DNA of 64,000 bases, taken from the IMG/VR virus record IMGVR_UViG_3300025011_000026, one strand, 5' to 3'. Both the position numbers and the translations under genes were made by a program. Positions 3,184 to 60,339 of the stretch are shown here, one piece after another. A model generated the notes under the pieces. It had not been told where the DNA came from. It did no database searches and was given only the letters and a program-made list of their open reading frames with translations. This stretch comes from a virus (Duplodnaviria; Heunggongvirae; Uroviricota; Caudoviricetes). How positions within the stretch are numbered: the stretch's first letter is position 1; every line of letters starts with the position of its first letter.

Positions 3184-3255
3184 ATAAATATACCAAATAC
3201 ATAAATAAATACTTCGAATTATTTCTTTTAATTGAAGACAGAAAGGAGGTTAATT

Positions 3256-18241: not shown

Positions 18242-19332
18242 AACCAATAGTAAAAAAATTAATAGAAGAAGGTAATATAGTTTATAGTTTTAGTAAATTA
18301 GGTTCATTTAATCAATGTGAATATGGATATTATAATACATATATACTTAAAAATAGAGGCATTGATAATATTTATAGTGTTTGCGGAAGCAATATTCATA
18401 ATGATTTGGAGCAAATATATAATGGTAAAGAAGTAGATTTAACTAAATCATTAAATAATACACTTTCAGAATTAGACATGTTGGGAGTTAATTTTGCAAA
18501 CGATAAAATTAGAAACGCTTGGGTGGCTGACATGGAACATTTCACTAAAAACTTTAAAGCAAAAGAAGGATCATATATTACTGAGGAAGGGTTTATATTT
18601 GAAATAATGCCTAGAGTTTATATACAAGGGTATATTGATATGGTGGAGCATCATGATGAAAATAATATTTCAATTATTGATTTCAAAACAAGCAGTAAAT
18701 TTGATAAAAAGAAATTAATTGGAGCAGGAAGACAGTTGGTGTTATATGGAATAGCAAAACAAGATAAATATACGATTAATAAAATAGCATGGTATATGCT
18801 TAAATATCTTTATGTTTGTTCTAAATTGAAAAACGGCAATATTAATAAGAAAATGTGTAATAGAGGGAAATGGGTTAAGGAAATAGGGACTGATAAAAAT
18901 ATAAAAGATAAAAAAACTAATACATATAAATTAACCAAAAGTGCTTTAAAAAGAGAATTAGAATCTTTAAAATATAAAGATTTTGAGATCGAAATATTAA
19001 TTAACGAAGCAATAAATAATAATAGTTTATTAAATATGCCAAAAGAAATTCAAGATAAGTATTGGTTAGAGGATTGTATTCTTGAATATGAGTTTAATGA
19101 AGAAACAAAGAGCGAATTTATGGAATTTGTGAAATCTACACATGAGAAAATTATTAAGAAAGATGTTGAGAATGAAAACGATTGGAAACCTTTAGATATT
19201 GAGAATGATAACTTTTTCTGTAGTAATCTTTGTGGGTTACGTCAATCATGTCGATATTTATTAGATTTTTATGAGAGATTAAAGTTAGGTGTTACTAAGA
19301 AAGACTCTGAGTGGGAAGATTTATTTGGATAA
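18226..19332 (+). CDS. PD-(D/E)XK exonuclease, Cas4/RecB-like with Fe-S cysteines
   Basis: GYIDMVEHHDENNISIIDFKTS gives the D ... D-x-K core. One N-terminal Cys (FNQCEY) plus C-terminal FCSNLCGLRQSC fits the 1+3 cysteine cluster pattern. Confidence 0.65.
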   Translation: MARELEPIVKKLIEEGNIVYSFSKLGSFNQCEYGYYNTYILKNRGIDNIYSVCGSNIHNDLEQIYNGKEVDLTKSLNNTLSELDMLGVNFANDKIRNAWVADMEHFTKNFKAKEGSYITEEGFIFEIMPRVYIQGYIDMVEHHDENNISIIDFKTSSKFDKKKLIGAGRQLVLYGIAKQDKYTINKIAWYMLKYLYVCSKLKNGNINKKMCNRGKWVKEIGTDKNIKDKKTNTYKLTKSALKRELESLKYKDFEIEILINEAINNNSLLNMPKEIQDKYWLEDCILEYEFNEETKSEFMEFVKSTHEKIIKKDVENENDWKPLDIENDNFFCSNLCGLRQSCRYLLDFYERLKLGVTKKDSEWEDLFG

Positions 19333-19346
19333 GAAGGAGGACTATA

Positions 19347-20318
19347 ATGAACTGTAGTATTTGTAATATTGATGAAAAAGATTCACCAAAATTTTATTAT
19401 AGTGGAATTTATGGGAATAATCTATGCAATAAGCATTATCTTCAAATGAGAAGGCATGGCAAAATTACTGATGATACTCCAAATATAAAATTAAATTTAT
19501 GTGAAGTTTGTGGTCATACTGAAGGGTTAAAAAGATGTGGGTTAGACGGAGACTTCAAAGGTAAAACATTGTGTGGAAAACATTATTCTCAAATATTTGA
19601 AAAAGGAATAATATTTGATGAATTACCAACTCATAAAGATATATTAAGGGTTTGCGAAATTTGTGGGGAAGATAAATCTACTGACGTTATTTTTTGTGCT
19701 GAAACAAATCAAATGCTCTGTAGAAAACATTATAATCATATCCGTACATATGGCAATATATTGGAGAGAAGTATTCATGATAAAAATACATATGTTTTGA
19801 AAGAGGATGAATTTGGAGAATATGCAGAGATAATATTAAGGAATATAGAACACAATGAAATAGCAAGAACGACAATTGACATTGAAGAATTGGAAAGGGT
19901 ATTACAAAGAGTGTGGGGTCATAGCACATGGGGATATGCGACCAGTAAAACTCAAGAAAGTTTTACGATGTTACAAAATTTTATTTTAAATCACGTAGGA
20001 TTAATTGATCATATTGATAGAAATACATTAAATAATAGGAAATATAATTTAATGCCCTCGAATAAATCATTAAATGCATTAAATTGTGGATTAAGAAATA
20101 ACAACATAAGTGGTGTTACTGGAGTTTCTTTTAGCAAAACTGCCAACTCATGGAGATCGTATATAAATTGGGAGGGCAAAAGATTAGAATTAGGAAACAG
20201 AAAAAGCAAAGATGATGCGATTATATTAAGACTATCTAAAGAAAATGAGTTATTAGGAATATTATCACCTCAAAAACAATTATTTGAAGAATATGGGATA
20301 GAGGTGAGAATTATATGA
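19347..20318 (+). mobile_element. free-standing HNH-AP2 homing endonuclease gene
   Basis: Three tandem Zn-knuckle repeats (CxxC ... C-x-KHY-x3-R-x-G). HNH_3-like HIDRNTLNNRKYNL. AP2-like ISGVTGVSFSKTANSWRSYINWEGKRLELG. SD AAGGAGG. Its stop overlaps the Pol III alpha ATG. Confidence 0.7.
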
Positions 20319-34868: not shown

Positions 34869-35019
34869 CAATTCAGTGGGGATAAATACATAAAGCAAAG
34901 AGGTGTTCATTCTGGAACAAAACAATCAAAATACATATAACCCAGATTCTCTTGATTCTCTAGATTCTTTAGGCATATTAGGGGGAGTCAGGGCAAAACC
35001 TGCAAGAAAGGATAAAATT

Positions 35020-35970
35020 ATGACCAAAGGTAAAATAGTGAATATTGGAGATAAATTTATAAGTAATAAAGGATATGAATACGAGGTTATAAATAAATTA
35101 AAAGGAGGAAAATATGAAGTTAGATTTAAAGATACAGGATATATAGCTAAGTCTGACAAAAAAGAAGTTTTAAATGGATGCATACGAGATTGGGAGGCTC
35201 CTTATGTCGTTGGTATAGGGATAGTTGGAAAAGAAATAGATCATCCCCAAAAGCATTATTTATATGATAGATGGAGAGATATGTTAAGACGGTGTTATGA
35301 TAATAGGTGTAATAGTTATTGTACATATGGAGCAGTAGGAGTAACAGTTGATGAAAAATGGTTTAGATTTATTAATTACGTAAATGATATCGAAACTAAG
35401 GAAAATTTTGAAAAATTAAAGATAAAAAATTGTGGTTGGGAAATAGATAAAGATTTAAAAGGGAATGGTACAAAAATATATTCTAATGCAACAACTTCAA
35501 TAATAAGAGAAGAAGAAAATATTAAAGAAAGAAATATCAGGCAAGATAATCCAGCAATAAAGCTTAAAATAAAAGTCATGCAATTTACAACAGAAGGCAA
35601 TTTTATTAAAACGCATGAGAGTATTACTGAAGCTATGAAGTTCATCGGTGTTATAAATGGTAGTGGCTCATGTATAATTGATTGTTGTAAAAGTAGAGCA
35701 AAGACAGCTTATGGGTTTGCATGGATGTATGAAAAAGATTTTATAGATTTTGAATCAGCTCGTATAAAAATAATACATAGATTAGAATATATTCCAGATA
35801 AGTATCGTAAAATAGTTTTGAAAATGGACAATGACTATAACATTATAGATGAATTTAAAGGGTTAAAAAGAGCATCTGAAAGTTTAGGTGCTACTGTTGG
35901 TGCAATAGCAAATGCCATAACAAGAGGGAACAAATGTAAAGGATTTATAGTGAGATACAAGGAGGAATAA
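35020..35970 (+). mobile_element. free-standing homing endonuclease-like gene with two NUMOD-type HTH modules
   Basis: YLYDRWRDMLRRCYD ... YGAVGVTVDEKW core, common in phage HNH/AP2-type endonucleases. Two C-terminal modules (ITEAMKFIG ... KTAYGFAWMY and LKRASESLG ... KCKGFIVRY). It has its own promoter and lies immediately 5' of the topoisomerase gene. Confidence 0.55.
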
Positions 35971-40903: not shown

Positions 40904-42463
40904 TTGAATAAATTAAAAAATAAAATTGTTGTAGTTAGTGGTTTTAGTGCTTGTGTTGATGGGGATACAGAATATTTCAATGGTACGAGATGGATAAAAA
41001 TAAAAGATTATTCTGAAGGGGATGAGGTTTTACAATATCATTCAGATGGGACTACAAATTTAACATATCCACAAAAATATATCAAAGAACCTTGTAAAGA
41101 AATGTGGTATTTTAGAACGAAACATGGATTAAATCAATGTTTAACAGATGAACATGAAGTTTATTACATTACATCAAAAAATAATTTATATCATAAGACG
41201 TTTAAGGAGATAAGAGAGCAACATAATTCTAATAAAAATGGTTTTAGTGGTAAATTCATAACTACTTTCAATTATGGAGGGAAAGGAATTGAATTAACTG
41301 ACAATGAGATAAAATTAATGTGTGCTGTAATTTGTGATTCTTCTTTTCCAAACGGTACAAATAAATGTTTTTTTAATCTTAAAAAAGATAGAAAAAAAAA
41401 TGCTTTAAGAAAATTACTTAAAGAAATGAATTACGAATGGGAGGAAAAAGAATATGACTCAATGAAGGGGTATACAAGATTTTTCTTAAATGCTCCAAGA
41501 AAAGAAAAGGAATTTTCCCCATACTGGTATAATTGTAATCAGCACCAACTCAAAATAATTTGTGACAACATTATTCAATGGGATGGTAGTACATCCAGTG
41601 ATAGTATAAGATTTTTCTCTACTTCAAAAGATACTGCTGATTTTATTCAATTTGCTTTTTCGGCTTGTGGAATAAGAGCGAATTTATTAGAAAATGATAG
41701 GAGGGGAAGAATAAAGTATAATGAGACGACAAATAAAGAATATATTACTAAATCTATTGATTATGTGATAAATATTTGCAATAGTAAATTATTATCATTA
41801 ATAAGAGATAAAAATAAAAAAATCGAATTTAGCAAATACATAACTAAAGATGGATTTAAATATTGCTTTACAGTACCTAGTGGAATTTTAGTTTTAAGAA
41901 GAGATGGTTGTATATTTATAACTGGCAATTGTGGTAAAGACTCAATTCAAAAATACATATCTGATAATTACAATTACCAAATGGTGATATCACATTCATC
42001 TCGTCCTATGCGTCCAAATGAAGATGAAGGTAATCCATATTATTTCATTACAAGAAAACAATTTGAAGATATGATTAAACAAAATGAATTTATTGAGTGT
42101 AGGAAATATAATACACTTGTAAATAATGTGAATGATGTTTGGTATTATGGAGTTAGTAAAAATTCTATTGACTTAACAAAAAATAATTACATAGTAGTTC
42201 TGGATATTTTGGGATTAATAGAGATTAAAAAATATTTCAAAGATAATGTAATTTCATTCTTTATTGATGTTGATGAACCAATTAGAAAACAACGTGCTAT
42301 TAATCGACAAGGATTTGACCCCACAGAATGGGATAGGCGTTATCAAGATGATATTAAAAGCTTTTCTCAAGAAGTAATAAATAAAGAAGTTGATTATATT
42401 ATTGAGAATTATGATTTTGATAAATGTGTAAGTGAAATTCTTAGTAAGATTGGAGAGATTTAA
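40904..42463 (+). CDS. guanylate-kinase-like (d)NMP kinase interrupted by an intein
   Basis: Exteins join to VVVSGFSA|CGKDS (P-loop GxxxxGK). Downstream HSSRPMRPNEDEGNPYYFITRKQFEDMIKQNEFIE matches the guanylate kinase TTRxPRxGExDGxDYxF core. Confidence 0.7.
   Translation: MNKLKNKIVVVSGFSACVDGDTEYFNGTRWIKIKDYSEGDEVLQYHSDGTTNLTYPQKYIKEPCKEMWYFRTKHGLNQCLTDEHEVYYITSKNNLYHKTFKEIREQHNSNKNGFSGKFITTFNYGGKGIELTDNEIKLMCAVICDSSFPNGTNKCFFNLKKDRKKNALRKLLKEMNYEWEEKEYDSMKGYTRFFLNAPRKEKEFSPYWYNCNQHQLKIICDNIIQWDGSTSSDSIRFFSTSKDTADFIQFAFSACGIRANLLENDRRGRIKYNETTNKEYITKSIDYVINICNSKLLSLIRDKNKKIEFSKYITKDGFKYCFTVPSGILVLRRDGCIFITGNCGKDSIQKYISDNYNYQMVISHSSRPMRPNEDEGNPYYFITRKQFEDMIKQNEFIECRKYNTLVNNVNDVWYYGVSKNSIDLTKNNYIVVLDILGLIEIKKYFKDNVISFFIDVDEPIRKQRAINRQGFDPTEWDRRYQDDIKSFSQEVINKEVDYIIENYDFDKCVSEILSKIGEI
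40952..41929 (+). mobile_element. intein (326 aa) with LAGLIDADG-like endonuclease domain
   Basis: Starts with Cys1 (CVDGDT, block A). Block B is CLTDEH. Central KLMCAVICDSSF and FIQFAFSACGIRANL look like LAGLIDADG motifs. It ends ...FITGN, followed by +1 Cys. Residues 17-342 of the host ORF. Confidence 0.65.
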
Positions 42464-44087: not shown

Positions 44088-44867
44088 CTACTTCTTTTTA
44101 ACAATTTCAGTAACTTTTAATTCAATAAAATACTCCTGATGATCTTCACTCAAAAACATAGACAATCTCTGTAGAAAGTTTTCTAATTCCAAGGTATTAA
44201 ATTTCCTCTTAATATTAATCAAAGCATTATTCACTTCAATTTCTTCTACTTTTTTTATAGAAGGAGTTGAAGTAAAATTTTTATCATTAATTTCTTTAAC
44301 ATCTTTATCATTTACCTGAGAAACATTAATATGTCTATTATATGCACGTTTCTTATGATCATCTTGTTCATTAATTTTAGGAAATCCTTTAGCAATTCTT
44401 TCATTGTTCAAATAATCTATGGCAGATTGACCAATAAAAACATTATTACCTTTCTTACTTTTTGCAACTTGCATTGTTAGAAAGTAAGAATTAAGAGAAA
44501 CTGATGAACATTTCCATTGTTTTACAATATCATGATTAGTATGAAGTCTTCTCAATTCTGCTAATGCTTTCTGACTATTTTCAAAATCCAGTGCTTCAAA
44601 TTCTGATTTAGGTGGAATTTCACCTGATTTAATCTTTTCTAGAAGTTCATTCATTTTCATTTCTCCAATCGTTGTTGAGTGAATTACTCCAGCGTTCATG
44701 ACAATTTTTCTTTCAATACCTGTTAAACTCTCAGAAGGGGTTCTTACTGATTCATGTTTTCTCAATCTTAATGCACGACCATGAATTCCATTTCCTGTTC
44801 TCTTTTGCTGTCGAATATCATCTTTTAACATTCTTTCAATTTCTGATTCTTGTTCATAGTCGAACAT
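44088..44867 (-). CDS. hypothetical protein downstream of the origin
   Basis: 259-aa ORF, the last gene of the minus-strand maintenance block. Basic N-terminus, no recognised motif. Confidence 0.55.
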   Translation of the reverse strand: MFDYEQESEIERMLKDDIRQQKRTGNGIHGRALRLRKHESVRTPSESLTGIERKIVMNAGVIHSTTIGEMKMNELLEKIKSGEIPPKSEFEALDFENSQKALAELRRLHTNHDIVKQWKCSSVSLNSYFLTMQVAKSKKGNNVFIGQSAIDYLNNERIAKGFPKINEQDDHKKRAYNRHINVSQVNDKDVKEINDKNFTSTPSIKKVEEIEVNNALINIKRKFNTLELENFLQRLSMFLSEDHQEYFIELKVTEIVKKK

Positions 44868-44946
44868 TCTGCACTAACTTTCTTTTTGCTACATAATTAT
44901 TGATGATACCATATCATGATGCTTATCTACTATCGGATAATTTTAC

Positions 44947-44956
44947 CTGTGGATAA
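44947..44956 (-). promoter_or_regulatory. DnaA box (perfect TTATCCACAG)
   Basis: The plus strand reads CTGTGGATAA. Confidence 0.6.
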
Positions 44957-45020
44957 CTTTCTAATAAAATGGTAATAATAGTAAGATATATACACCTTGT
45001 ATTAGTTTCTTTTGTGGGTC

Positions 45021-45124
45021 TAAAGTTTAGACTGGTCGGGTATAAAACTTAGACGGGTCTAGAATTTAGACAGGTGTTTTCTGTGGATAAGCATCATATA
45101 ACCAGTATAGAATTTAGACAGGTT
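45021..45124. repeat. iterons (4 direct repeats, core TTAGACnGGT)
   Basis: AGTTTAGACTGGTC, AACTTAGACGGGTC, TAGAATTTAGACAGGTG and TAGAATTTAGACAGGTT, with cores starting at 45027, 45049, 45066 and 45114. A variant TTCGACAGGTTGA lies at 45944-45956. Confidence 0.65.
45081..45090 (-). promoter_or_regulatory. DnaA box (perfect TTATCCACAG)
   Basis: The plus strand reads CTGTGGATAA, between iterons 3 and 4. Confidence 0.6.
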
Positions 45125-45130
45125 GACATT

Positions 45131-45523
45131 TTAACTATCTCTTTCTTCCATCATTTTTTCATATAATTTGTCTGCACTAATAACTCCTTCTTTAAAAGAT
45201 TGTTCAATAATTTCTGTTTCTTCTGAGCATAGAAAAATCATCTTTTTGATGTTGCCATTTACACCAGCACTTGCAGTCCACACATAACCATTCTCTTCTA
45301 GCCAATTCAATCCATTTATACAAGATTGGCGAGATAAACCAGTAAGTTTAATTAATTGAGAAATGCTGATCCAATCACCTGTTTTAGCAAATCCCCATGT
45401 TTTTCTAATCATTAAGAGATAAACCTTTAAAGCTGAGAAATTACTAATTCTAGGTATCAATTCATCAAATACAATATTAGGAACCTCCATATAATTTTTC
45501 TGTGGTTTAGGTAATCTGAACAT
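45131..45523 (-). CDS. replication initiator, phage_rep_O-like winged-helix protein
   Basis: YMEVPNIVFDELIPRISNFSALKVYLLMIRKTWGFAKTGDWISISQLIKLTGLSRQSCINGLNWLEENGY matches the N-terminal domain pattern of lambda-O-type and plasmid replication proteins. ATG 45523 has SD AAGGA. The TTG at 45559 in the track has none. Confidence 0.65.
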   Translation of the reverse strand: MFRLPKPQKNYMEVPNIVFDELIPRISNFSALKVYLLMIRKTWGFAKTGDWISISQLIKLTGLSRQSCINGLNWLEENGYVWTASAGVNGNIKKMIFLCSEETEIIEQSFKEGVISADKLYEKMMEERDS

Positions 45524-45570
45524 GTTTTCATCCTTCTTTCTAGCAATAAAAACAGGCAATGCTAGAAGAG

Positions 45571-45598
45571 TTGACGAATTTCTAAAAAATGATATAAT
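45571..45598 (+). promoter_or_regulatory. near-consensus promoter facing away from rep
   Basis: TTGACG, 16 nt, TATAAT. Confidence 0.55.
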
Positions 45599-45604
45599 GG
45601 GTAT

Positions 45605-45680
45605 ATAGAAATTTCATCTAGTCTTCTGGGTCTCCTAAAGCGATGTGTCGGCAAAACTCTACGCTTTAGGAGATTTTTCA
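45605..45680 (+). ncRNA. candidate small RNA 1 (promoter + terminator unit, no ORF)
   Basis: Perfect 12-bp stem TCTCCTAAAGCG/CGCTTTAGGAGA (45631-45673), then TTTTT. About 75 nt from the predicted start. Confidence 0.35.
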
Positions 45681-45793
45681 TTTGCTTATTTAATTTAAGT
45701 TAGTTACAACACAATAAAAAAGTTGATAGCATGTTCCATTACACACTACCAACTTTTGACATTCTTTTACTAAATTATTACCAAAATATAGAC

Positions 45794-45821
45794 TTGATTT
45801 TTTTCTATATCTGACTATAAT
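45794..45821 (+). promoter_or_regulatory. promoter
   Basis: TTGATT, 16 nt, TATAAT. Confidence 0.45.
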
Positions 45822-45827
45822 TAATAT

Positions 45828-45920
45828 CAAGAGCGTCAAGTAAATGTTGTGTTGGAACATTACTTGATCAAAAGCCTGTCAAGTCCTTGCAAGACCTGAT
45901 GGGCTTCGCTTATTTTATTG
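45828..45920 (+). ncRNA. candidate small RNA 2 (two hairpins, T-rich end)
   Basis: Hairpin TCAAGTAAATGTT/AACATTACTTGA at 45836-45867. Long imperfect hairpin at 45872-45906, followed by CGCTTATTTTATT. Confidence 0.3.
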
Positions 45921-45982
45921 AGTTAATTTGTTAGAGTTATATATTCGACAGGTTGATACATTTCTCCTTTAAAGAATTTAAA

Positions 45983-45992
45983 TTATCCACAG
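45983..45992 (+). promoter_or_regulatory. DnaA box (perfect TTATCCACAG)
   Basis: Read directly. A one-mismatch box TTATCCCCA follows at 46012-46020. Confidence 0.6.
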
Positions 45993-45997
45993 GTATT

Positions 45998-46026
45998 ATT
46001 ATACATGAAAGTTATCCCCATGTGTA
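45998..46026 (-). promoter_or_regulatory. possible minus-strand promoter for the rep leader
   Basis: The minus strand reads TACACA, 17 nt, TATAAT. The -35 is weak. Confidence 0.3.
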
Positions 46027-46071
46027 TAGAAATTTTGACAAAATATTTAATCGTTAGGCCGTACAACAAAA

Positions 46072-46110
46072 TCGAAAAAATAAACACTATCCAAAATTAA
46101 CTGGATAGTG
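46072..46110 (-). terminator. rho-independent terminator after parR
   Basis: 9-bp stem CACTATCCA/TGGATAGTG, followed on the minus strand by TTTATTTTTT. Confidence 0.6.
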
Positions 46111-46143
46111 CTTTTGTATTTCAATAAAATTCAATGAAATTAA

Positions 46144-46515
46144 TTATTCAGACATGAGATTGTTCATAGTTTTAAGAAAAATACTATCTTTCTTTTTATC
46201 AGAGACTTCAGGAACCATCTCAACCAGCTCATCTCTATCCACAATAACTTCATTTTTCTTTCTCGTTTTCTTCGGAACTTTTACACTATTTACAGAAACC
46301 TTAATATTGCCTGACACAATGTTATCTGTAATTTTTTCATTAAATTTATCCAATTTAAGTTTTTTTGGATAATAATCCATGTAAAATTTTAAACAAGTTT
46401 TAACCAACTGTGAATTAGAAATTCCTTGTTCTTCAATTTGATTAACATAATCAATTAGAATTTTGTCATTTTTTGAACTAAGGTTTGTGCCAACATATTT
46501 TCTCAGGCTACCCAT
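46144..46515 (-). CDS. parR: ParR-like ribbon-helix-helix centromere-binding protein
   Basis: Starts 2 nt after the parM stop. The N-terminus KYVGTNLSSKNDKILIDYVNQIEEQG fits a beta-strand plus two helices. The tail is basic. Confidence 0.5.
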   Translation of the reverse strand: MGSLRKYVGTNLSSKNDKILIDYVNQIEEQGISNSQLVKTCLKFYMDYYPKKLKLDKFNEKITDNIVSGNIKVSVNSVKVPKKTRKKNEVIVDRDELVEMVPEVSDKKKDSIFLKTMNNLMSE

Positions 46516-46517
46516 AA

Positions 46518-47495
46518 TTACTCATCCATATCCCAATATTGTTTTCCTCCATCAAGATATGCTAAAGCATTAGTCAATTGAGGATGTTCACTTGATAACT
46601 TTGCTGTATTATCAAGTTTAATATTAAGATAAGGTAACAATACTTCGGCAGGGCCTCCCATGACACAAGTTTCTAATGCCTGTTGTAAATCAAATGTTTT
46701 TTCCAAAGAAGAAATTACATTATCGATATAATCTATAAGAATTTCATCTTTTGTCCTATCTAGATCATAACTTTGCTTTCGCAATGTAATCTCTGACCGT
46801 TTAAGATATTGCAATAATTCATGAGGTTTAAATCTAGTTCCATTCTTAGAATTAAAAGTTGTTGTAATTTGCTCTAGTATTTGATCAAAACCAAATTGTG
46901 TATAACTTACTTTAGAATCTAAAATTACTTCAGTATTTTCAGGATTAATATCGTCACCTTTACGCCATAATGAAGCATCTAAAGTTCCACCACCAAAATC
47001 TAAAACCAATAGGGGATATTCATATCTTCCTTTTTGAGAATCAGTTATTCCAGATTGAATGTAGCAAATAGAATCAGTTATTTCAATATTGATATTACCT
47101 CTATCATCACCGATATTAATAGTTTGTGCTTTCATAGTTTTTAATTTTTCAAGATATGCATTTGCATGTTGTTTGTAATAACCAGCCGGAGTACCAACTA
47201 CTAATTTAACTTTAATATCTTTACATTCTGGAAAACTTAAAGCAATAGAAGTTAATGTACATAAATCAAAATGTGTTGTGGTGTATTTATCTGGATTGAT
47301 ATAAATTTTTCCTTCTGGATCTCCTACAAGATGACTTAAGCCATCTTTTTTAACTAAGTAAGTATTACTTTTTAGTAGACCATCGCCCTCAGTATTAAAC
47401 TTAATTCTTGCTCTCAATACTATCCCTTTACTGGTTTTGTAGTACGAATTTCCTGCATCAAGACCTAAAATTTCTTCATCGTTCATCTCATTCAT
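46518..47495 (-). CDS. parM: ParM/StbA-type actin-like segregation ATPase
   Basis: Phosphate-1 LGLDAGNSYYKT and phosphate-2 LVLDFGGGTLDASL motifs. 325 aa. Confidence 0.8.
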   Translation of the reverse strand: MNEMNDEEILGLDAGNSYYKTSKGIVLRARIKFNTEGDGLLKSNTYLVKKDGLSHLVGDPEGKIYINPDKYTTTHFDLCTLTSIALSFPECKDIKVKLVVGTPAGYYKQHANAYLEKLKTMKAQTINIGDDRGNINIEITDSICYIQSGITDSQKGRYEYPLLVLDFGGGTLDASLWRKGDDINPENTEVILDSKVSYTQFGFDQILEQITTTFNSKNGTRFKPHELLQYLKRSEITLRKQSYDLDRTKDEILIDYIDNVISSLEKTFDLQQALETCVMGGPAEVLLPYLNIKLDNTAKLSSEHPQLTNALAYLDGGKQYWDMDE

Positions 47496-47566
47496 TTTAA
47501 ATTCCTCCTAAATAATATTTCAATGTATGCGAATAGTGTATCATTAATTGTGTACTTTTACAAGTT

Positions 47567-47659
47567 TTCAATTGTAGGTAAATATATCTACAGTTGTAAG
47601 TATATATACTTGTCTACAAATGTAAGTATGTTAATATAGACAAACTTATCTATATTAAC
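47567..47659. repeat. parC-like centromere repeats upstream of parM
   Basis: TTGTAGGTA (47573), TCTACAGTTGTAAGTAT (47587-47603) and TCTACAAATGTAAGTAT (47613-47629). Also an 11-bp inverted repeat GTTAATATAGA-N8-TCTATATTAAC (47630-47659). Confidence 0.55.
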
Positions 47660-48156
47660 ATATCTATTAATTAGAAAAGTCAGAAACTTCAGAGATGATT
47701 CTATCTTATATGATTATTTTTTAAAGATCAGGGCAAAGTAATGCTAGAGGACGAGGAAAGTTAACATATAGAAGGAGTAGTTTGATGATTAAGTCCTGAG
47801 AAATCAGAGCTTTTCTTTTTTTGTAAAGTATACTTGGGTATATTGGTAAACATTTAGTATACTCATATTTTATAATAATATTATTTATATATTAAACCAT
47901 CATACGTACTCCTATAAACACCTAATTATCCATTTTTAAACCATTAATATAAGCTATTTTCAGGATGTAAAATTTAAGAAAAGATGAATTATCATCAATC
48001 TAAGCCTTTGAAAATAATGTTTGGTGTGATTGTGTTAGTATGATTAGTTAAGGTTGTTTTAGGTTAAAGATTTCCCATTTATTACTATACATAACGTACA
48101 AACAATACTCAATAAGATTAAACATATCAACACCACACAAAGGAGGTCACAAAGCA

Positions 48157-48408
48157 TTGATAACTGACAAACTCAACAAATCAGAGATTAAAGTTCTTCA
48201 AGTTCTTCAGGAATCAAATATCACTAATGATATGAATGCTATGAAAATATCAACATTGTCAGAAAAAACTGGATTAAGTTATTTCATTGTTAGAAATATT
48301 ATCAAAGCATTTTATATTGCTAATATTTGTAAGAAAGGGAGGAGAGAGGGGAATGGAGAGACATATTATTTGAGCAAAGGAATTGATGATATTGAAACAA
48401 AAACCTGA
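48157..48408 (+). CDS. small winged-helix/HTH regulator, first gene of the T4SS-like operon
   Basis: SD AAAGGAGG then TTG. ISTLSEKTGLSYFIVRNIIKAF looks like a helix-turn-helix. Confidence 0.5.
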   Translation: MITDKLNKSEIKVLQVLQESNITNDMNAMKISTLSEKTGLSYFIVRNIIKAFYIANICKKGRREGNGETYYLSKGIDDIETKT

Positions 48409-54322: not shown

Positions 54323-56021
54323 AAAGATAAGCAAGATTAAAGATATGGCAATTAAATCAGGTAAATATTCTGCTTTGTATACTGGACAATTTATTTTAGG
54401 TGGATTAGGCTATGCTGTTCAAATTGCTTCAAATGGAATATTAGGAATGAGCATTCCAGATTATAAACTGCCTAATTTGAAGTTTGGAGATGATAAAACT
54501 TCATTAGGAGATAGGGTAGTGTTAACTCCTAGTAAATTTCTTCTTAAAGGAAATGGCATAGTAATTGGCAAAGACTATAATACAAAAAATGTACTTACTT
54601 ATCCTGTAGATCATTTTGACGATCTTATGAAAAATTTTATTTATGTTGGGTCTCCTGGAAGTGGAAAATCAAATTTAGCAGAAAATATAGCAGTTCAAAT
54701 ATCTAAAATTAATAATTTACCTAATTTTAATACAGCAGGATTTTGTGTGATAGATGTAGCTGATGGAGCATTGATTGATAATATTTTAATGTCTATTCCT
54801 GAAAACAGATTGGAAGATGTAGTTTTATTAGATTTCTCTAATAAAGATTTTCTGCCAGGAATTAACCTTCTAGAATTCGATGAAAAAGTAGAGAAACAAT
54901 TCCCACACTTTATTCATGCTGAAATAATCTCATTCTTTAAAAAACGATTTGGTGAACAAATTGGTTATGCTAGTGAGGATCTTTTATCAAACTCGTTGAA
55001 CGCAATTCTGAAACAAACTGACTATCCTAAAACACTATTAGGAATTATCAAAATGCTAACTGAAGTAGAATATCGTGAACAAATAGTTGCATCTTTGAGA
55101 AAAAATAAAAGGAATGCTTCAGTAGTCAGATATTGGGATAGATTTGAAGCTCAATCTCCTTCTGTTAAAAGAGATATGGTTAAGCCTTTATTAAATAAAG
55201 TTGGAAATTTAACCAATAATGATTATTTAAAATCTATTATATGTCAAAACAAATCTACCATAGATTTTAGAAAAATTATGGATAGTGGCAAAATTCTTCT
55301 TATAAAAGCACCAAAGGTTGCTGTCGGAAAAGTTAATATAGAAATATTGATACCATTGATTCTTTCAAAGTTTTGGATCGCTGCTTTATCAAGATTTGAT
55401 ATTACTAATACTAATTTACGCCGTCCATTCTTTGCCTTTCTTGATGAACCTCAAATGTATCTATCAAATGAAGCAGGAATAGAAGAAATGTTGACGGAAA
55501 TGAGAAAGTATAGATTTGGACTTCATTTTTTCTTTCAATCCCCTGAACAAACGCAACTTCAATCAGTTATCAAAATGATGTTAGAAGTCAATCCTCAAAT
55601 TATATCATTTGCTATGGGTAGAGGTGGAGCACAAACATTATTTAGAGAATTTGAAACTGGTGATGAAGAAAAAGACATGTCAAATAGATATGCAATTCTT
55701 AATCTCCCAAAACATCACGCACTTTGTAGATTTTTATATAAAAGCGAAAAGAGTGTATCTATTATTAAATGCGATCCTCCAATTAAACCTTTGCGTAAAA
55801 AAGTACCTGATATTATTACTGAAAACAGTCAAATGTATTTACGTTCTGTTGATGAAATTATGGAAGAAATTCTTGAATCGGATTATATCCCTGAACCAGA
55901 TTTTAGTTTAGGGGAGGTGAGCAATAATGAACAGCAAAGATTTAATGTTGAAAAAATTGATTGTGGGCCAAAAATACGCCCATTTAACGGCGAGAGATTT
56001 AGAGATAATAAGAAGTATTAG
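54315..56021 (+). CDS. VirD4/TraG-like type IV coupling protein
   Basis: N-terminal hydrophobic segment. Walker A VGSPGSGKSN, Walker B FAFLDEPQ. ATG 54315 has better SD spacing than TTG 54306. Confidence 0.6.
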   Translation: MGEKISKIKDMAIKSGKYSALYTGQFILGGLGYAVQIASNGILGMSIPDYKLPNLKFGDDKTSLGDRVVLTPSKFLLKGNGIVIGKDYNTKNVLTYPVDHFDDLMKNFIYVGSPGSGKSNLAENIAVQISKINNLPNFNTAGFCVIDVADGALIDNILMSIPENRLEDVVLLDFSNKDFLPGINLLEFDEKVEKQFPHFIHAEIISFFKKRFGEQIGYASEDLLSNSLNAILKQTDYPKTLLGIIKMLTEVEYREQIVASLRKNKRNASVVRYWDRFEAQSPSVKRDMVKPLLNKVGNLTNNDYLKSIICQNKSTIDFRKIMDSGKILLIKAPKVAVGKVNIEILIPLILSKFWIAALSRFDITNTNLRRPFFAFLDEPQMYLSNEAGIEEMLTEMRKYRFGLHFFFQSPEQTQLQSVIKMMLEVNPQIISFAMGRGGAQTLFREFETGDEEKDMSNRYAILNLPKHHALCRFLYKSEKSVSIIKCDPPIKPLRKKVPDIITENSQMYLRSVDEIMEEILESDYIPEPDFSLGEVSNNEQQRFNVEKIDCGPKIRPFNGERFRDNKKY

Positions 56022-56691
56022 GGATTTTAAAATATTCTCCAGAACTCAAATTCAAATAATGTTCTTTCAATCCAAACAAAGTTTAACTATTTGCAATCGA
56101 AGGCTGGCTGAAATTGAAAGATTAGAATTTATAAAAAGGACACCAATAGCATTAAATGGGGAATCATTAGTCACTGCGGGAAAATTGCTTTGTCAAATTG
56201 GTGGGGTATATATATCAAAATTACCATCCGACTATACGCATCAACTATTAATAAATGAAATTTATGCTTTATTGTTCAGAGAGCAGAATTTAAATAGAAT
56301 TACTATCAAGCAATATAAACCAGAATTTGTTTACAGATACAAAGATAGAGAAAATGGCAAACAATATATTTTTAGGTCTGATATATTAGTTGTATTAACT
56401 AAGAATAATCAAGATACCACTTTGCTATTCGAAATTGATGCCGGAACAGAAAGCAAGAAACAATTAAGAGAAAAGATTGCTGTTTATGAAAAAGTGTCTC
56501 AAAAAGTGAAAGGGTTTCCTCGATTATTCTGGTTGACTAATACATTGGGATATCGAAAATTAACAAATTTAGATAAACAAATTAATATTGCTCAAGTAGA
56601 AGAATTGAGAAACGACTTTTATATTTTTACTCGTTACCCAGATATGAAGAAGATTAAATTAATTCCTGATATTGTGGTCTGGAAAATATAA
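55927..56691 (+). CDS. replication-relaxation (Replic_Relax) family protein, candidate relaxase
   Basis: LTARDLEIIRSIRDFKIFSRTQIQIMFFQSKQSLTICNRRLAEIERLEFIKR is the typical N-terminal wHTH pattern of the family. Strong SD GGGGAGGTG. It overlaps the coupling-protein gene by 95 nt. Confidence 0.6.
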   Translation: MNSKDLMLKKLIVGQKYAHLTARDLEIIRSIRDFKIFSRTQIQIMFFQSKQSLTICNRRLAEIERLEFIKRTPIALNGESLVTAGKLLCQIGGVYISKLPSDYTHQLLINEIYALLFREQNLNRITIKQYKPEFVYRYKDRENGKQYIFRSDILVVLTKNNQDTTLLFEIDAGTESKKQLREKIAVYEKVSQKVKGFPRLFWLTNTLGYRKLTNLDKQINIAQVEELRNDFYIFTRYPDMKKIKLIPDIVVWKI

Positions 56692-58620: not shown

Positions 58621-60339
58621 CTACTTATAAATTCCCCAAACCAATTTTTCACCAGTTTCAGGATGTTTACCAGCCGATTTTTGATTGCCACTGCAACATC
58701 TAGATATGCCATTCGCAGACATATTATATTTTATTGAAGCATCCAACATACTCTCAAAAATTTCATTTGTTGTTATACAAATTACCTTTTTCTTACAAGA
58801 ATCATAATTTTCTGCTTTAGCATTTTTTAAACTATATTCTATTTCATCTTCTGTTTTCAAAAGATATTTTTCATAATACATCCAAACCAATGGCTCACCA
58901 GTTATCGACTTACCTGCTGATTTATGCTTACCTTTACAACATGCAGATATATTTGGTCTTATTGATTCTCTGCCATTGAATGAAGCTTCATATATAGAAT
59001 CAAATATTTCTCCAGTTGTAATGCAAATCACTTTCTCGCATATTTCTTCTTTTGGGTTATAAGAACACCATCCTAATTCTGTTCCTTTTTTAAGATAACT
59101 CCTTATCGCACTACTACTCAAATTTAAATTTTCCCCTATTTTAACTGTGCTTTTAATTCCTTCATTCCATAAACTACATGCTGTTTTAACTAAATTTCTA
59201 CACCCTGCTTCTTGCACTCTTAACCAATCTATATCTTCTTCAGTAAAATTTAATAACTCTGGCAATTTACTATTCATAATACTGTCCCTTATCCACCCTA
59301 TTTCAGACGTTCTGCAATCAATTATTAAATAATTTTTAATTTTATTACTCCTAGCCAACCATTCCTTATCAAAATCATTGATTTGTATATCATCTAATGA
59401 ATCCCACTTACTTTTCGTTTCTTCGTAGTGTTGAATTCCTTGACACTCTATCACACCATTTATTTTATTTATGTATATGTCATATCTATAATTTTCACAC
59501 CATTTAAAAGTAGTTTTTGATAATTGAATGATAAATGTTTCGTGTAATTGTTCTAAAACATTTATCATAACCTTTTCGGGGATGCTCACACCATCTCCAC
59601 ATCTGTTGCAACCGAAACCGTGATTTACTAAGTTAGAAATTTTAATCATTTTTTCATAACCACAATCAGGACATTTAGTTAATACATATTCACCTGACCC
59701 AAAAGAATATTTATGTGCATCATTTATATTCACAAAGAAATGTGTTAAATGAGGATGTGTGACAAAAATAGTATTGCACATATCACAATCTAGACTACCC
59801 TTTTGTCCTCCTGTAAAAGAACTTATATGTTTTTGTTCAGGTTTGTGTTCTGGATTATCTAAACAATTAAACCAATATCCTTTTTTATCTATGCCTTGTG
59901 AAGCAAAACTTACATCTTTGGGAGATAATTTATTACCATCTTTATCAACATTCAGTTCGCAATTCCAACGATTAATTATTATATCTGCTTCATTTTTATT
60001 TTTATTATCATAGCACCATTTGTAAAAAGATGTCCATTGTTTATCTCCTGCGTTTGCACATCTTAAACAATAATATTTTCCATCTTCTCTAACTTGTGAA
60101 GTATAGTCAGACCACCTTATATTTTCTAATAATTTTCCACATCCATCACATTCAATATTTACAAATACTCTGGCCTTATCTTGTAGATCCTCTACTTTAA
60201 CTTTTATTATTGCACCTCGTATATATTTTTCTTCGCCATTCTTATTTATGTATTTTGGTATCTCATATCCTTTTGCTTCATACCATTTAATATTTTTACT
60301 ACCTAACCCAACCTCAGCCTCTTTTGTTATCAATCCCAT
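58621..60339 (-). mobile_element. Zn-ribbon / PD-(D/E)XK-like / NUMOD-like endonuclease gene (free-standing homing-endonuclease-like)
   Basis: Several treble-clef-like Cys pairs (CDGC ... CLRC, CDMC, CPDC ... CNRC). Putative nuclease core YRYDIYINKINGVIECQGIQHY. Two C-terminal repeats VICITTxEIF(D/E)S ... CC(K/S)G ... KSAGK ... LVW. Confidence 0.45.

Follow-up and report, generated by a model that had tools for sequence, protein, structure and literature searches.

The segment from 44948 to 46020 of a 64,000-nucleotide stretch of virus DNA (IMG/VR record IMGVR_UViG_3300025011_000026, Caudoviricetes; the whole stretch is called the window here) is probably the maintenance replicon, that is, the rep gene together with its origin, of a large Clostridium phage-plasmid, a reading to which we give a probability of about 70% from sequence comparison. 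The module is very probably a replication origin in which features of ori-lambda are combined with those of the DnaA-assisted iteron origins of the P1 and F type. It consists of a gene for a 130-aa relative of the lambda O initiator (mini-O), four iterons, an A/T-rich block and predicted binding sites for host DnaA (DnaA boxes), and it lies beside partition genes (Table 1).

Architecture and conservation of the origin

Four exact matches to TTAGACNGGT begin at 45027, 45049, 45066 and 45114, immediately 3' of rep on the minus strand, and none is found elsewhere in the 64-kb window (0.22 expected from shuffles, with four or more in 0 of 100). They belong to units of about 21 bp with the consensus GGGTcTAaAnTTTAGACnGGT, which start 8 bp beyond the rep stop codon and have start-to-start spacings of 22, 17 and 48 bp. 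Each unit has an internal dyad, for instance GTCTAAA-g-TTTAGAC, so the repeats look like dimer sites, as in ori-lambda. The first-pass annotation had reported these iterons next to rep, and its motif coordinates were correct throughout.

The perfect DnaA box TTATCCACA occurs five times in the window against 1.11 expected, and no shuffled sequence out of 100 had at least five. One-mismatch boxes are not enriched window-wide (36 vs 28 expected). Three of the perfect boxes fall within 44948-45991, with TTATCCACA(G) at 44947/8 (-), 45081/2 (-) and 45983 (+); these copies and the one-mismatch box at 46012 had been reported correctly. The remaining two, at 3255 and 34339, are both solitary, and the first-pass annotation had noticed only the one at 3255. 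A second origin in the window was considered and rejected, as no other iteron array is present there and these two boxes stand alone.

About 20 related loci were compared with the window locus (W). They come from viral contigs, metagenomes and Clostridium metagenome-assembled genomes (MAGs), namely IMG/VR contigs of 38-154 kb (L001-L007), metagenomes, two Clostridiaceae/Clostridium MAG contigs and contigs with more distant family members. Seventeen loci, representing 12 distinct sequences, extend far enough for the architecture to be compared, and all 17 have the same order: rep stop codon, AAATGTCAA, iteron 4, DnaA box, iterons 3-2-1, a 44-bp A/T-rich block and a second DnaA box. Homology stops right after this distal box, and the gene beyond it varies among loci. 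Both boxes are invariant in all nine columns among the 12 distinct relatives, the proximal one together with its GAAAA flank, whereas pairwise identity is 55-59% in the spacers beside the boxes (59% in the one adjoining the proximal box) and 39% in the 20 bp past the distal box. The boxes are 133-136 bp apart in all 17 loci that reach the distal one; the spacing is 134 and 136 bp in L026 and L028, whose O-like proteins are only 64-70% identical.

The iterons are 73-81% identical among relatives and fall into five types, which track positions 65, 66 and 70 in the recognition helix of the O-like protein (RQ..N, KQ..S, KP..T, RH..D, KN..S and EP..S). GTCTAAA/TTTAGAC is found with the helix LSRQSCING, GTCTAGA/TTTAGAC with LSKQSVISG, GTAAAGA/TTTTGAC with LSKPSVITG, GTGCAGA/TTTGCAC with LSRHSVIDG or LSKNSVLSG, and CCCTAAAGA/TTTTAAGGG with LSEPSVISG. 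The sites of a host factor are thus invariant while the sites of the element's own protein co-evolve with it, which is the pattern expected of an origin that depends on both Rep and DnaA. The suggestion in the first-pass annotation that the element replicates as a plasmid with host DnaA gains support from this covariation, from the invariant box spacing and from the partition linkage described below; it is from these patterns that we infer the plasmid state and the use of DnaA.

The A/T-rich block is more conserved than the iterons (89% pairwise identity) and is retained even where identity of the O-like protein is 56-70%. The 40-mers at 44950-44999, which lie between the distal box and iteron 1, contain 20-23% guanine plus cytosine (GC); their duplex stability is among the lowest in the window (94-95th percentile of lowest stability), and the block may be the site of unwinding or helicase loading. 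It includes triplets resembling DnaA-trios, TAA TAA TAG TAA GAT at 44973-44987 (+). Chromosomal basal unwinding systems combine a DnaA box with three or more NAN trios, placed no further than 16 bp from it and in the correct polarity (PMC8287927, PMC7561715). The run TAA TAA TAG TAA (44973-84) is on the wrong side of the box at 44948 and about 95 bp from the box of right polarity at 45082, and NAN runs are also common at the window's 72% A+T; a DnaA-trio reading was therefore rejected on polarity and spacing.

There is also an iteron-like site, TTCGACAGGTTGA, upstream of rep at 45944. The site is present as first reported and matches at 12 of 13 positions, but its core GTCGAATAT is unchanged in L006, where the iterons differ, so its assignment as an operator for the O-like protein is doubtful and it may not be an O-binding site. 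A role as an autoregulatory half-iteron is unsupported, with the qualification that recent recombination could also explain the constant core.

The initiator and its alternative

The open reading frame (ORF) of rep as listed runs from 45131 to 45559 with a TTG start, and the likely true start is the ATG at 45523, which is preceded by AAGGA. The product matches PF04492, the lambda O N-terminal domain, at 37.4 bits (gathering cutoff 28.7) and phrog_678, 'replication initiation O-like', at 1.4e-16, so that its earlier description as a lambda-O-like Rep holds. It is about 40% identical to the N-terminal part (residues 10-95) of annotated phage O proteins. An AlphaFold2 model (predicted local distance difference test score, pLDDT, 82.8) shows one winged helix-turn-helix, in which a beta-hairpin forms the wing, followed by two conserved helices at the C-terminus. 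Fold searches against the PDB gave generic MarR- and TubR-like proteins at E ~2e-3; no RepE or pi structure was among these fold matches, and no Rep_3-type Pfam hit was obtained.

Proteins of the close family are 116-134 aa long, with one exception of 185 aa. A profile search of 1.84 billion representatives returned 5,785 homologs, mostly of 220-400 aa and with the domain at the N-terminus, and the 130-aa form is a minority within the O-domain family. At this length mini-O lacks the part by which lambda O engages P and the helicase, and DnaA is for this reason proposed as the recruiter of the loader.

The same genomic slot carries a different initiator, of 309 aa, in relatives of 227-230 kb (L009-L013), where it lies upstream of a homolog of ORF259, the gene that follows the origin in the window. 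In this 309-aa protein (L010:2979-3908) the N-terminal part is winged-helix-like and the C-terminus carries a DnaA_N domain (PF11638, 7.9e-12); fusion to DnaA domain I is uncommon among phage initiators. The gene holds internal GGAAATGC-type repeats, and these repeats are flanked by two perfect DnaA boxes (3439+, 3698-). The presence of DnaA_N on the alternative allele fits a need for DnaA domain-I function at these origins. The W-type origin could obtain that function from whole host DnaA on the boxes, and the L010 type would carry the domain itself.

A mechanism can be proposed on the reading of the module as a maintenance replicon. Dimers of mini-O would bind the four dyad iterons (45016-45123) and form a complex like the lambda 'O-some', while host DnaA would occupy the two invariant boxes, one on either side of the stretch formed by iterons 1-3 and the adjoining A/T-rich block. 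Together, mini-O and DnaA would open the A/T-rich block at 44950-45015, and domain I of DnaA would bring in the helicase-loading machinery. The supply of Rep may be set by the long structured leader (45560-46000), with its far-end DnaA-box pair, internal terminator and two short countertranscripts, the latter acting like oop or plasmid copy-control RNAs. Finally, the adjacent parMRC cassette would segregate the copies.

The leader of rep

The 580 bp between parR and rep are non-coding yet highly organised. At the far end, the pair of DnaA boxes (the second being the one-mismatch TTATCCCCA) overlaps a promoter-like site on the minus strand (46026-45998). Such a pair, about 30 bp apart and at about -500/-468 from the rep ATG, recurs in seven loci (W, L001, L003, L006, L017, L020 and L023). 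Directly upstream of the rep ribosome-binding site, the dyad CTAGCA...TGCTAG is present in all relatives with partly compensatory changes, and the sequence of its 5' arm is conserved; this dyad could be a translational-control hairpin or an operator. Several weak candidates for the rep promoter were seen, none of them convincingly conserved.

Two countertranscripts are predicted. The promoter of the first is the best promoter match of the region (11/12 plus TG), and its extended -10, TGnTAnAAT, is kept in 14/14 loci. In the predicted RNA, an unpaired 5' tail is followed by a hairpin of 12 bp (45631-45673) and then a U-run, and all nine distinct versions, with different stems of 12-18 bp, fold into the same tail, hairpin and U-run. 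RNAalifold on a MAFFT alignment returned no structure because the stems differ too much for sequence alignment, and nine single-sequence folds were used instead; no Rfam match was found for this RNA. Its loop motif GUCGGCAAAAC (45643-45661) is inverted (GUUUUGCCGAC) in L005 and L014, with collinear flanks and different stems. An inversion that preserved the loop sequence would not alter a kissing pair between sense and antisense.

The second predicted countertranscript also has a conserved promoter. Its RNA would form two stem-loops and a U-rich tail with the conserved loop CUUGCAAG (fold z = -3.2), and the stem of stem-loop 2 exists in three co-varying versions that keep pairing. Between the two countertranscripts lies the rep-sense terminator-like hairpin, which relatives retain with compensatory changes. 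L024 has an extended -10 promoter in the rep sense upstream of the hairpin and an antisense one downstream of it, so that the transcripts would overlap; this is the only locus in which an overlap of sense and antisense transcripts is established by sequence. A transcription-attenuation model found no support in the leader fold, in which no alternative, mutually exclusive pairing was seen, and for the same reason regulation by the countertranscripts is offered here as hypothetical. A conserved AAGGAG and start codon precede a micro-ORF (MYQPVEYI...) at ~45930-45968 (-) in W, L002, L003 and L006. As a leader peptide (after AAGGAG ~45965), it was rejected since it is not conserved in L001 or L005.

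Partition genes and the probable plasmid state

The module belongs to a minus-strand block set among plus-strand phage genes, which holds parM/Alp, a ParR-like ORF, the non-coding leader, the O-like gene, the iteron/DnaA-box intergenic region and ORF259. ParM matches PF17989 (1.7e-10) and phrog_691, 'partition protein' (7.6e-25), and its best plasmid matches are all Clostridium ParM/StbA proteins; the 123-aa adaptor is assigned as ParR-like by its position. The motif TGTARGTA occurs only three times in the 64-kb window, each time upstream of parM (47573, 47595 and 47621), and beside these repeats is a 17-bp palindrome at 47627-47662, so that the repeats and palindrome are a plausible parC. The layout of actin-like ATPase, small downstream ORF and upstream repeats is that of a type II (ParMRC) system. 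Divergent from parM is a gene for a small helix-turn-helix regulator (48157-48408, +; phrog_17403, 7e-7), with homologs near the module in L005 and L007, which may be a lysogeny or maintenance regulator.

Among close relatives (O-like protein at least 70% identical), a partition ATPase stands beside the module in all nine loci with upstream flank of at least ~2.5 kb. These ATPases are of three unrelated kinds, namely the W-type ParM plus ParR (W, L003 and L006), a second, divergently oriented actin-like ATPase (L001, L004 and L007) and a ParA Walker ATPase (L002, L005 and L028). Such consistent linkage supports maintenance in a plasmid state, i.e., a phage-plasmid. The gene content is also that of a phage-plasmid, with the large terminase subunit (TerL), endolysin and Pol III alpha encoded in the same 64-kb window as rep and parM.

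Several observations weigh against this reading. The winged-helix fold of mini-O is generic, so that its function is read from the Pfam and PHROG family assignment and from context. No helicase loader was identified beside rep, where ORF259 has no detectable homology, and since the phage itself encodes a DnaB-like helicase and a primase, recruitment may not fall to DnaA. L024, whose O-like protein is 56% identical, has no perfect distal box, yet keeps the iterons and the A/T-rich block. No integrase was found among the window ORFs scanned, and as the window is part of a genome, an integrase could lie elsewhere. Furthermore, the module stands behind a cI/cro-like gene pair in the distant relatives L026 and L027 and behind small ORFs in L024, with no par in the available flank of any of them, which indicates that the origin type is not exclusive to plasmids.

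Alternative explanations

The most serious alternative, which we consider unlikely, is an ordinary lytic or early phage origin of the lambda type, used for theta replication after infection or induction with the DnaB-like helicase, primase and Pol III alpha that the phage encodes; the DnaA boxes would then serve only to modulate transcription or timing, as DnaA does at lambda pR/pO. The lambda-like initiator family and dyad iterons would suit such an origin, as would the replisome genes of the phage, the distant relatives with cI/cro-like genes and no par, and the lack of any other iteron array in the window, which could make this one the sole origin. In lambda, too, DnaA protects sites near pO (PMC3985674). 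However, partition ATPases of three non-homologous kinds in 9/9 close relatives are hard to explain without inheritance in a plasmid state, and the boxes bracket the iterons and A/T-rich block, not a promoter. In addition, the strand that carries the module is not the one used by the replication and structural genes of the phage, an arrangement shared with known Firmicute phage-plasmids (PMC6669507). Lytic and plasmid readings are moreover not mutually exclusive, and a single origin could serve both states.

It is far less probable that the O-like protein represses transcription of the downstream gene (ORF259 or its substitutes) and has the repeats as its operators, with DnaA boxes that are incidental or regulatory. 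The fold search does yield MarR/ArsR-type regulators, and the downstream genes begin 10-40 bp from the distal box with no obvious promoter of their own. Yet the PF04492 and PHROG O-like matches are above thresholds, and the repeat, box and A/T architecture is conserved while the downstream gene is variable. Two perfect invariant DnaA boxes at fixed spacing together with an A/T-rich block would be unexpected for an operator, and the alternative allele at the locus has a DnaA_N domain.

Most improbable of all is that the repeats are a centromere, to which the O-like winged helix would bind as a TubR- or AspA-like adaptor of the adjacent partition ATPase. TubR does turn up among the structural neighbours, AspA appears by sequence at E ~0.5 and a partition ATPase always adjoins the module. 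But adaptor ORFs come with the par cassettes themselves, as do upstream repeats in W, the O-like/iteron module pairs with both actin-like and ParA-type motors, as a motor-specific adaptor would not, and the DnaA boxes and A/T-rich block are left unexplained.

Comparison with known replicons

The window initiator shares with lambda the O N-terminal DNA-binding domain, and as in lambda there are four dyad iterons of ~20 bp beside an A/T-rich stretch. Lambda O dimers bind four 19-bp iterons, and DnaA-binding sites are found in the pO/oop region next to O (PMC3985674). A predicted countertranscript starts just upstream of the window initiator gene and runs away from it, as oop does from pO. The comparison uses the size and position of oop, and the likeness is one of position only; neither sequence nor Rfam gave a match. 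Lambda replicons, too, can persist as plasmids. Unlike in lambda, the window origin is downstream of the initiator gene and not within it, and on both sides of the iterons and A/T block there is a perfect DnaA box. The 130-aa protein is also missing the domain that binds P at the C-terminus of lambda O, no loader resembling P was detected, and the host is a Firmicute.

With P1 oriR, F oriS, pSC101 and RK2 oriV the module shares the combination of iterons, an A/T-rich element and DnaA boxes beside rep. DnaA boxes are present in the P1, F, RK2 and pSC101 origins, and P1 has such arrays at each end (PMC4980987). Like the proposed carrier of the module, P1 is a phage-plasmid, and its replicon adjoins a partition cassette. 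In these plasmids, however, the initiators are of the RepA/RepE/pi WH1-WH2 kind, whereas the window Rep is a single O-family winged helix, and their iterons are asymmetric monomer sites, whereas the dyad symmetry of the window iterons suggests dimer sites. There is also no separate incA-like control array as in P1-type replicons, and control seems to involve countertranscripts. The first-pass annotation had proposed a plasmid-type origin of iterons and Rep; the comparison of loci supports an origin, but its initiator and iterons are of the lambda type and not those of RepA/RepE-type plasmids.

Similarly, the Firmicute ParM phage-plasmids (Bacillus vB_BtS_B83, TP-21 and IEBH) have a small rep-par block opposite to the phage gene strand. 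Clostridium botulinum c-st may be a comparable ParM phage-plasmid. Phage B83 has an opposite-strand module of ParM and Rep, and an actin-like ParM with upstream repeats is common to these phage-plasmids and the window (PMC6669507). The B83 initiator is RepA-like, whereas that of the window is O-like. In pT181, pIP501/pAMbeta1 and R1 (CopA), the rep leader likewise encodes short antisense RNAs built of a 5' tail and a terminator hairpin, and a rep-sense terminator upstream of rep resembles leaders of the pT181/pIP501 type. An alternative anti-terminator pairing was looked for in the window leader and not found. To our knowledge, the pT181, pIP501/pAMbeta1 and R1 plasmids are without iterons and DnaA boxes.

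Neighbouring genes and host

The carrier is probably a large, uncultivated Clostridium phage that is able to persist as a plasmid, a view consistent with the occurrence of module relatives in Clostridiaceae and Clostridium MAGs. The window has a GC content of 28% and holds replication genes of a large phage, namely DnaB-like helicase, primase and Pol III alpha, all three as first annotated and there taken to suggest a possible second replication mode, as well as ribonucleotide reductase and type II topoisomerase; ThyX, the large terminase and endolysin are encoded too. No DNA match to deposited phages and plasmids was obtained for the window by blastn (distant mode), and its TerL shares only 26% identity with the Bacillus phage G counterpart. 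A tRNA search found none in the window, and Rfam gave no family match for the region (E ≤ 1) or the whole window.

ORF259 has no match in Pfam, PHROG, a PDB sequence search or Foldseek with an AlphaFold2 model (pLDDT 68). Its homologs follow the origin in W, L002 and L006 and the different initiator in L009-L013, and other genes take its place in L001, L003 and L004. As it has no match by any of these searches and is not constantly linked to the origin, ORF259 was rejected as a helicase loader.

Some further genes deserve mention. A Replication-relaxation domain protein (PF13814, 1.6e-11) is encoded at 55927-56691 (+), just downstream of the terminase and a 571-aa phrog_5156 gene of unknown function, which is an odd location for a plasmid-type function. 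At 40904-42463 (+) there is a 519-aa PhoH-like ATPase/guanylate kinase fusion with a weak central LAGLIDADG-like signal (E = 0.007) that may be a homing-endonuclease or intein remnant. In addition, three HNH/homing-endonuclease genes (19311-20318, 34903-35970 and 58621-60339) are directly beside essential genes, being upstream of Pol III alpha, upstream of a topoisomerase subunit and near structural genes.

Table 1. Positions of the origin module and adjoining features in the window.
Feature	Position	Strand	Description
ORF259	44088..44867	-	Gene downstream of the origin; no assigned function; not a constant part of the module
Distal DnaA box (TTATCCACAgg)	44948..44956	-	Perfect consensus; outer boundary of the conserved origin module
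Conserved 44-bp A/T-rich block	44972..45015	.	Putative DNA-unwinding or helicase-loading element
Iterons 1-3	45016..45075	.	~21 bp each (45016-45036, 45038-45058, 45055-45075); dyad GTCTAaA-n-TTTAGAC; co-vary with O-like recognition helix
Proximal DnaA box (cTTATCCACAGAAAA)	45082..45090	-	Perfect consensus; between iterons 3 and 4
Iteron 4	45103..45123	.	Followed by conserved TTGACATTT flank, which abuts the rep stop codon
Mini initiator (rep)	45131..45523	-	130 aa; lambda-O N-terminal domain: winged helix and two C-terminal helices
Conserved hairpin/dyad CTAGCA...TGCTAG	45540..45565	-	Directly upstream of the rep ribosome-binding site
Countertranscript 1 (predicted)	45571..45680	+	Promoter TTGACG-16-TGaTATAAT (45571-45598); ~75-nt RNA (~45605-45680)
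Rep-sense terminator-like hairpin	45718..45757	-	17 pairs, then T-run; in rep leader; possible attenuator
Countertranscript 2 (predicted)	45794..45919	+	Promoter TTGATT-16-TATAAT (45794-45821); ~92-nt RNA
Iteron-like site TTCGACAGGTTGA	45944..45956	+	12/13 positions match iteron 4 plus flank
Upstream DnaA-box pair	45983..46020	+	Perfect box 45983-91; one-mismatch TTATCCCCA 46012-20
Bidirectional terminator	46082-46113
Type II partition genes	46144..47495	-	Actin-like ParM/Alp ATPase 46518-47495; 123-aa ParR-like adaptor 46144-46515
parC-like centromere and promoter region	47560..47665	.	Upstream of parM

Significance

Tentatively, and as a proposal that we regard as possible rather than probable, the module may represent an undescribed replicon family of large Clostridial phage-plasmids. 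Its members would use a bare 130-aa mini-O as recognition module and leave helicase recruitment to host DnaA through the invariant flanking boxes, while sister phages would have fused DnaA domain I to another initiator encoded at this locus. The cassettes for iteron specificity, partition and initiator type would be freely exchangeable, and copy number would be set by two oop-like countertranscripts and not by a control iteron array.

The helicase-loading route of phage and plasmid origins is less well understood in Firmicutes than in E. coli, and a genomic slot with either mini-O plus DnaA boxes or a DnaA-domain-I fusion is a natural experiment on access to the host helicase-loading machinery. 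Likewise, the natural co-evolution of five iteron and recognition-helix pairs could be used for studying or engineering initiator specificity and incompatibility. The module offers a concrete and testable minimal replicon of ~1.1 kb for a lineage of very large, uncultivated phages of Clostridium, whose relatives lie on contigs of up to 230 kb and which has no DNA match among deposited phages or plasmids. Together with its partition genes, it may also be of practical use in Clostridium genetics, as a new replicon of low copy number with a partition module.

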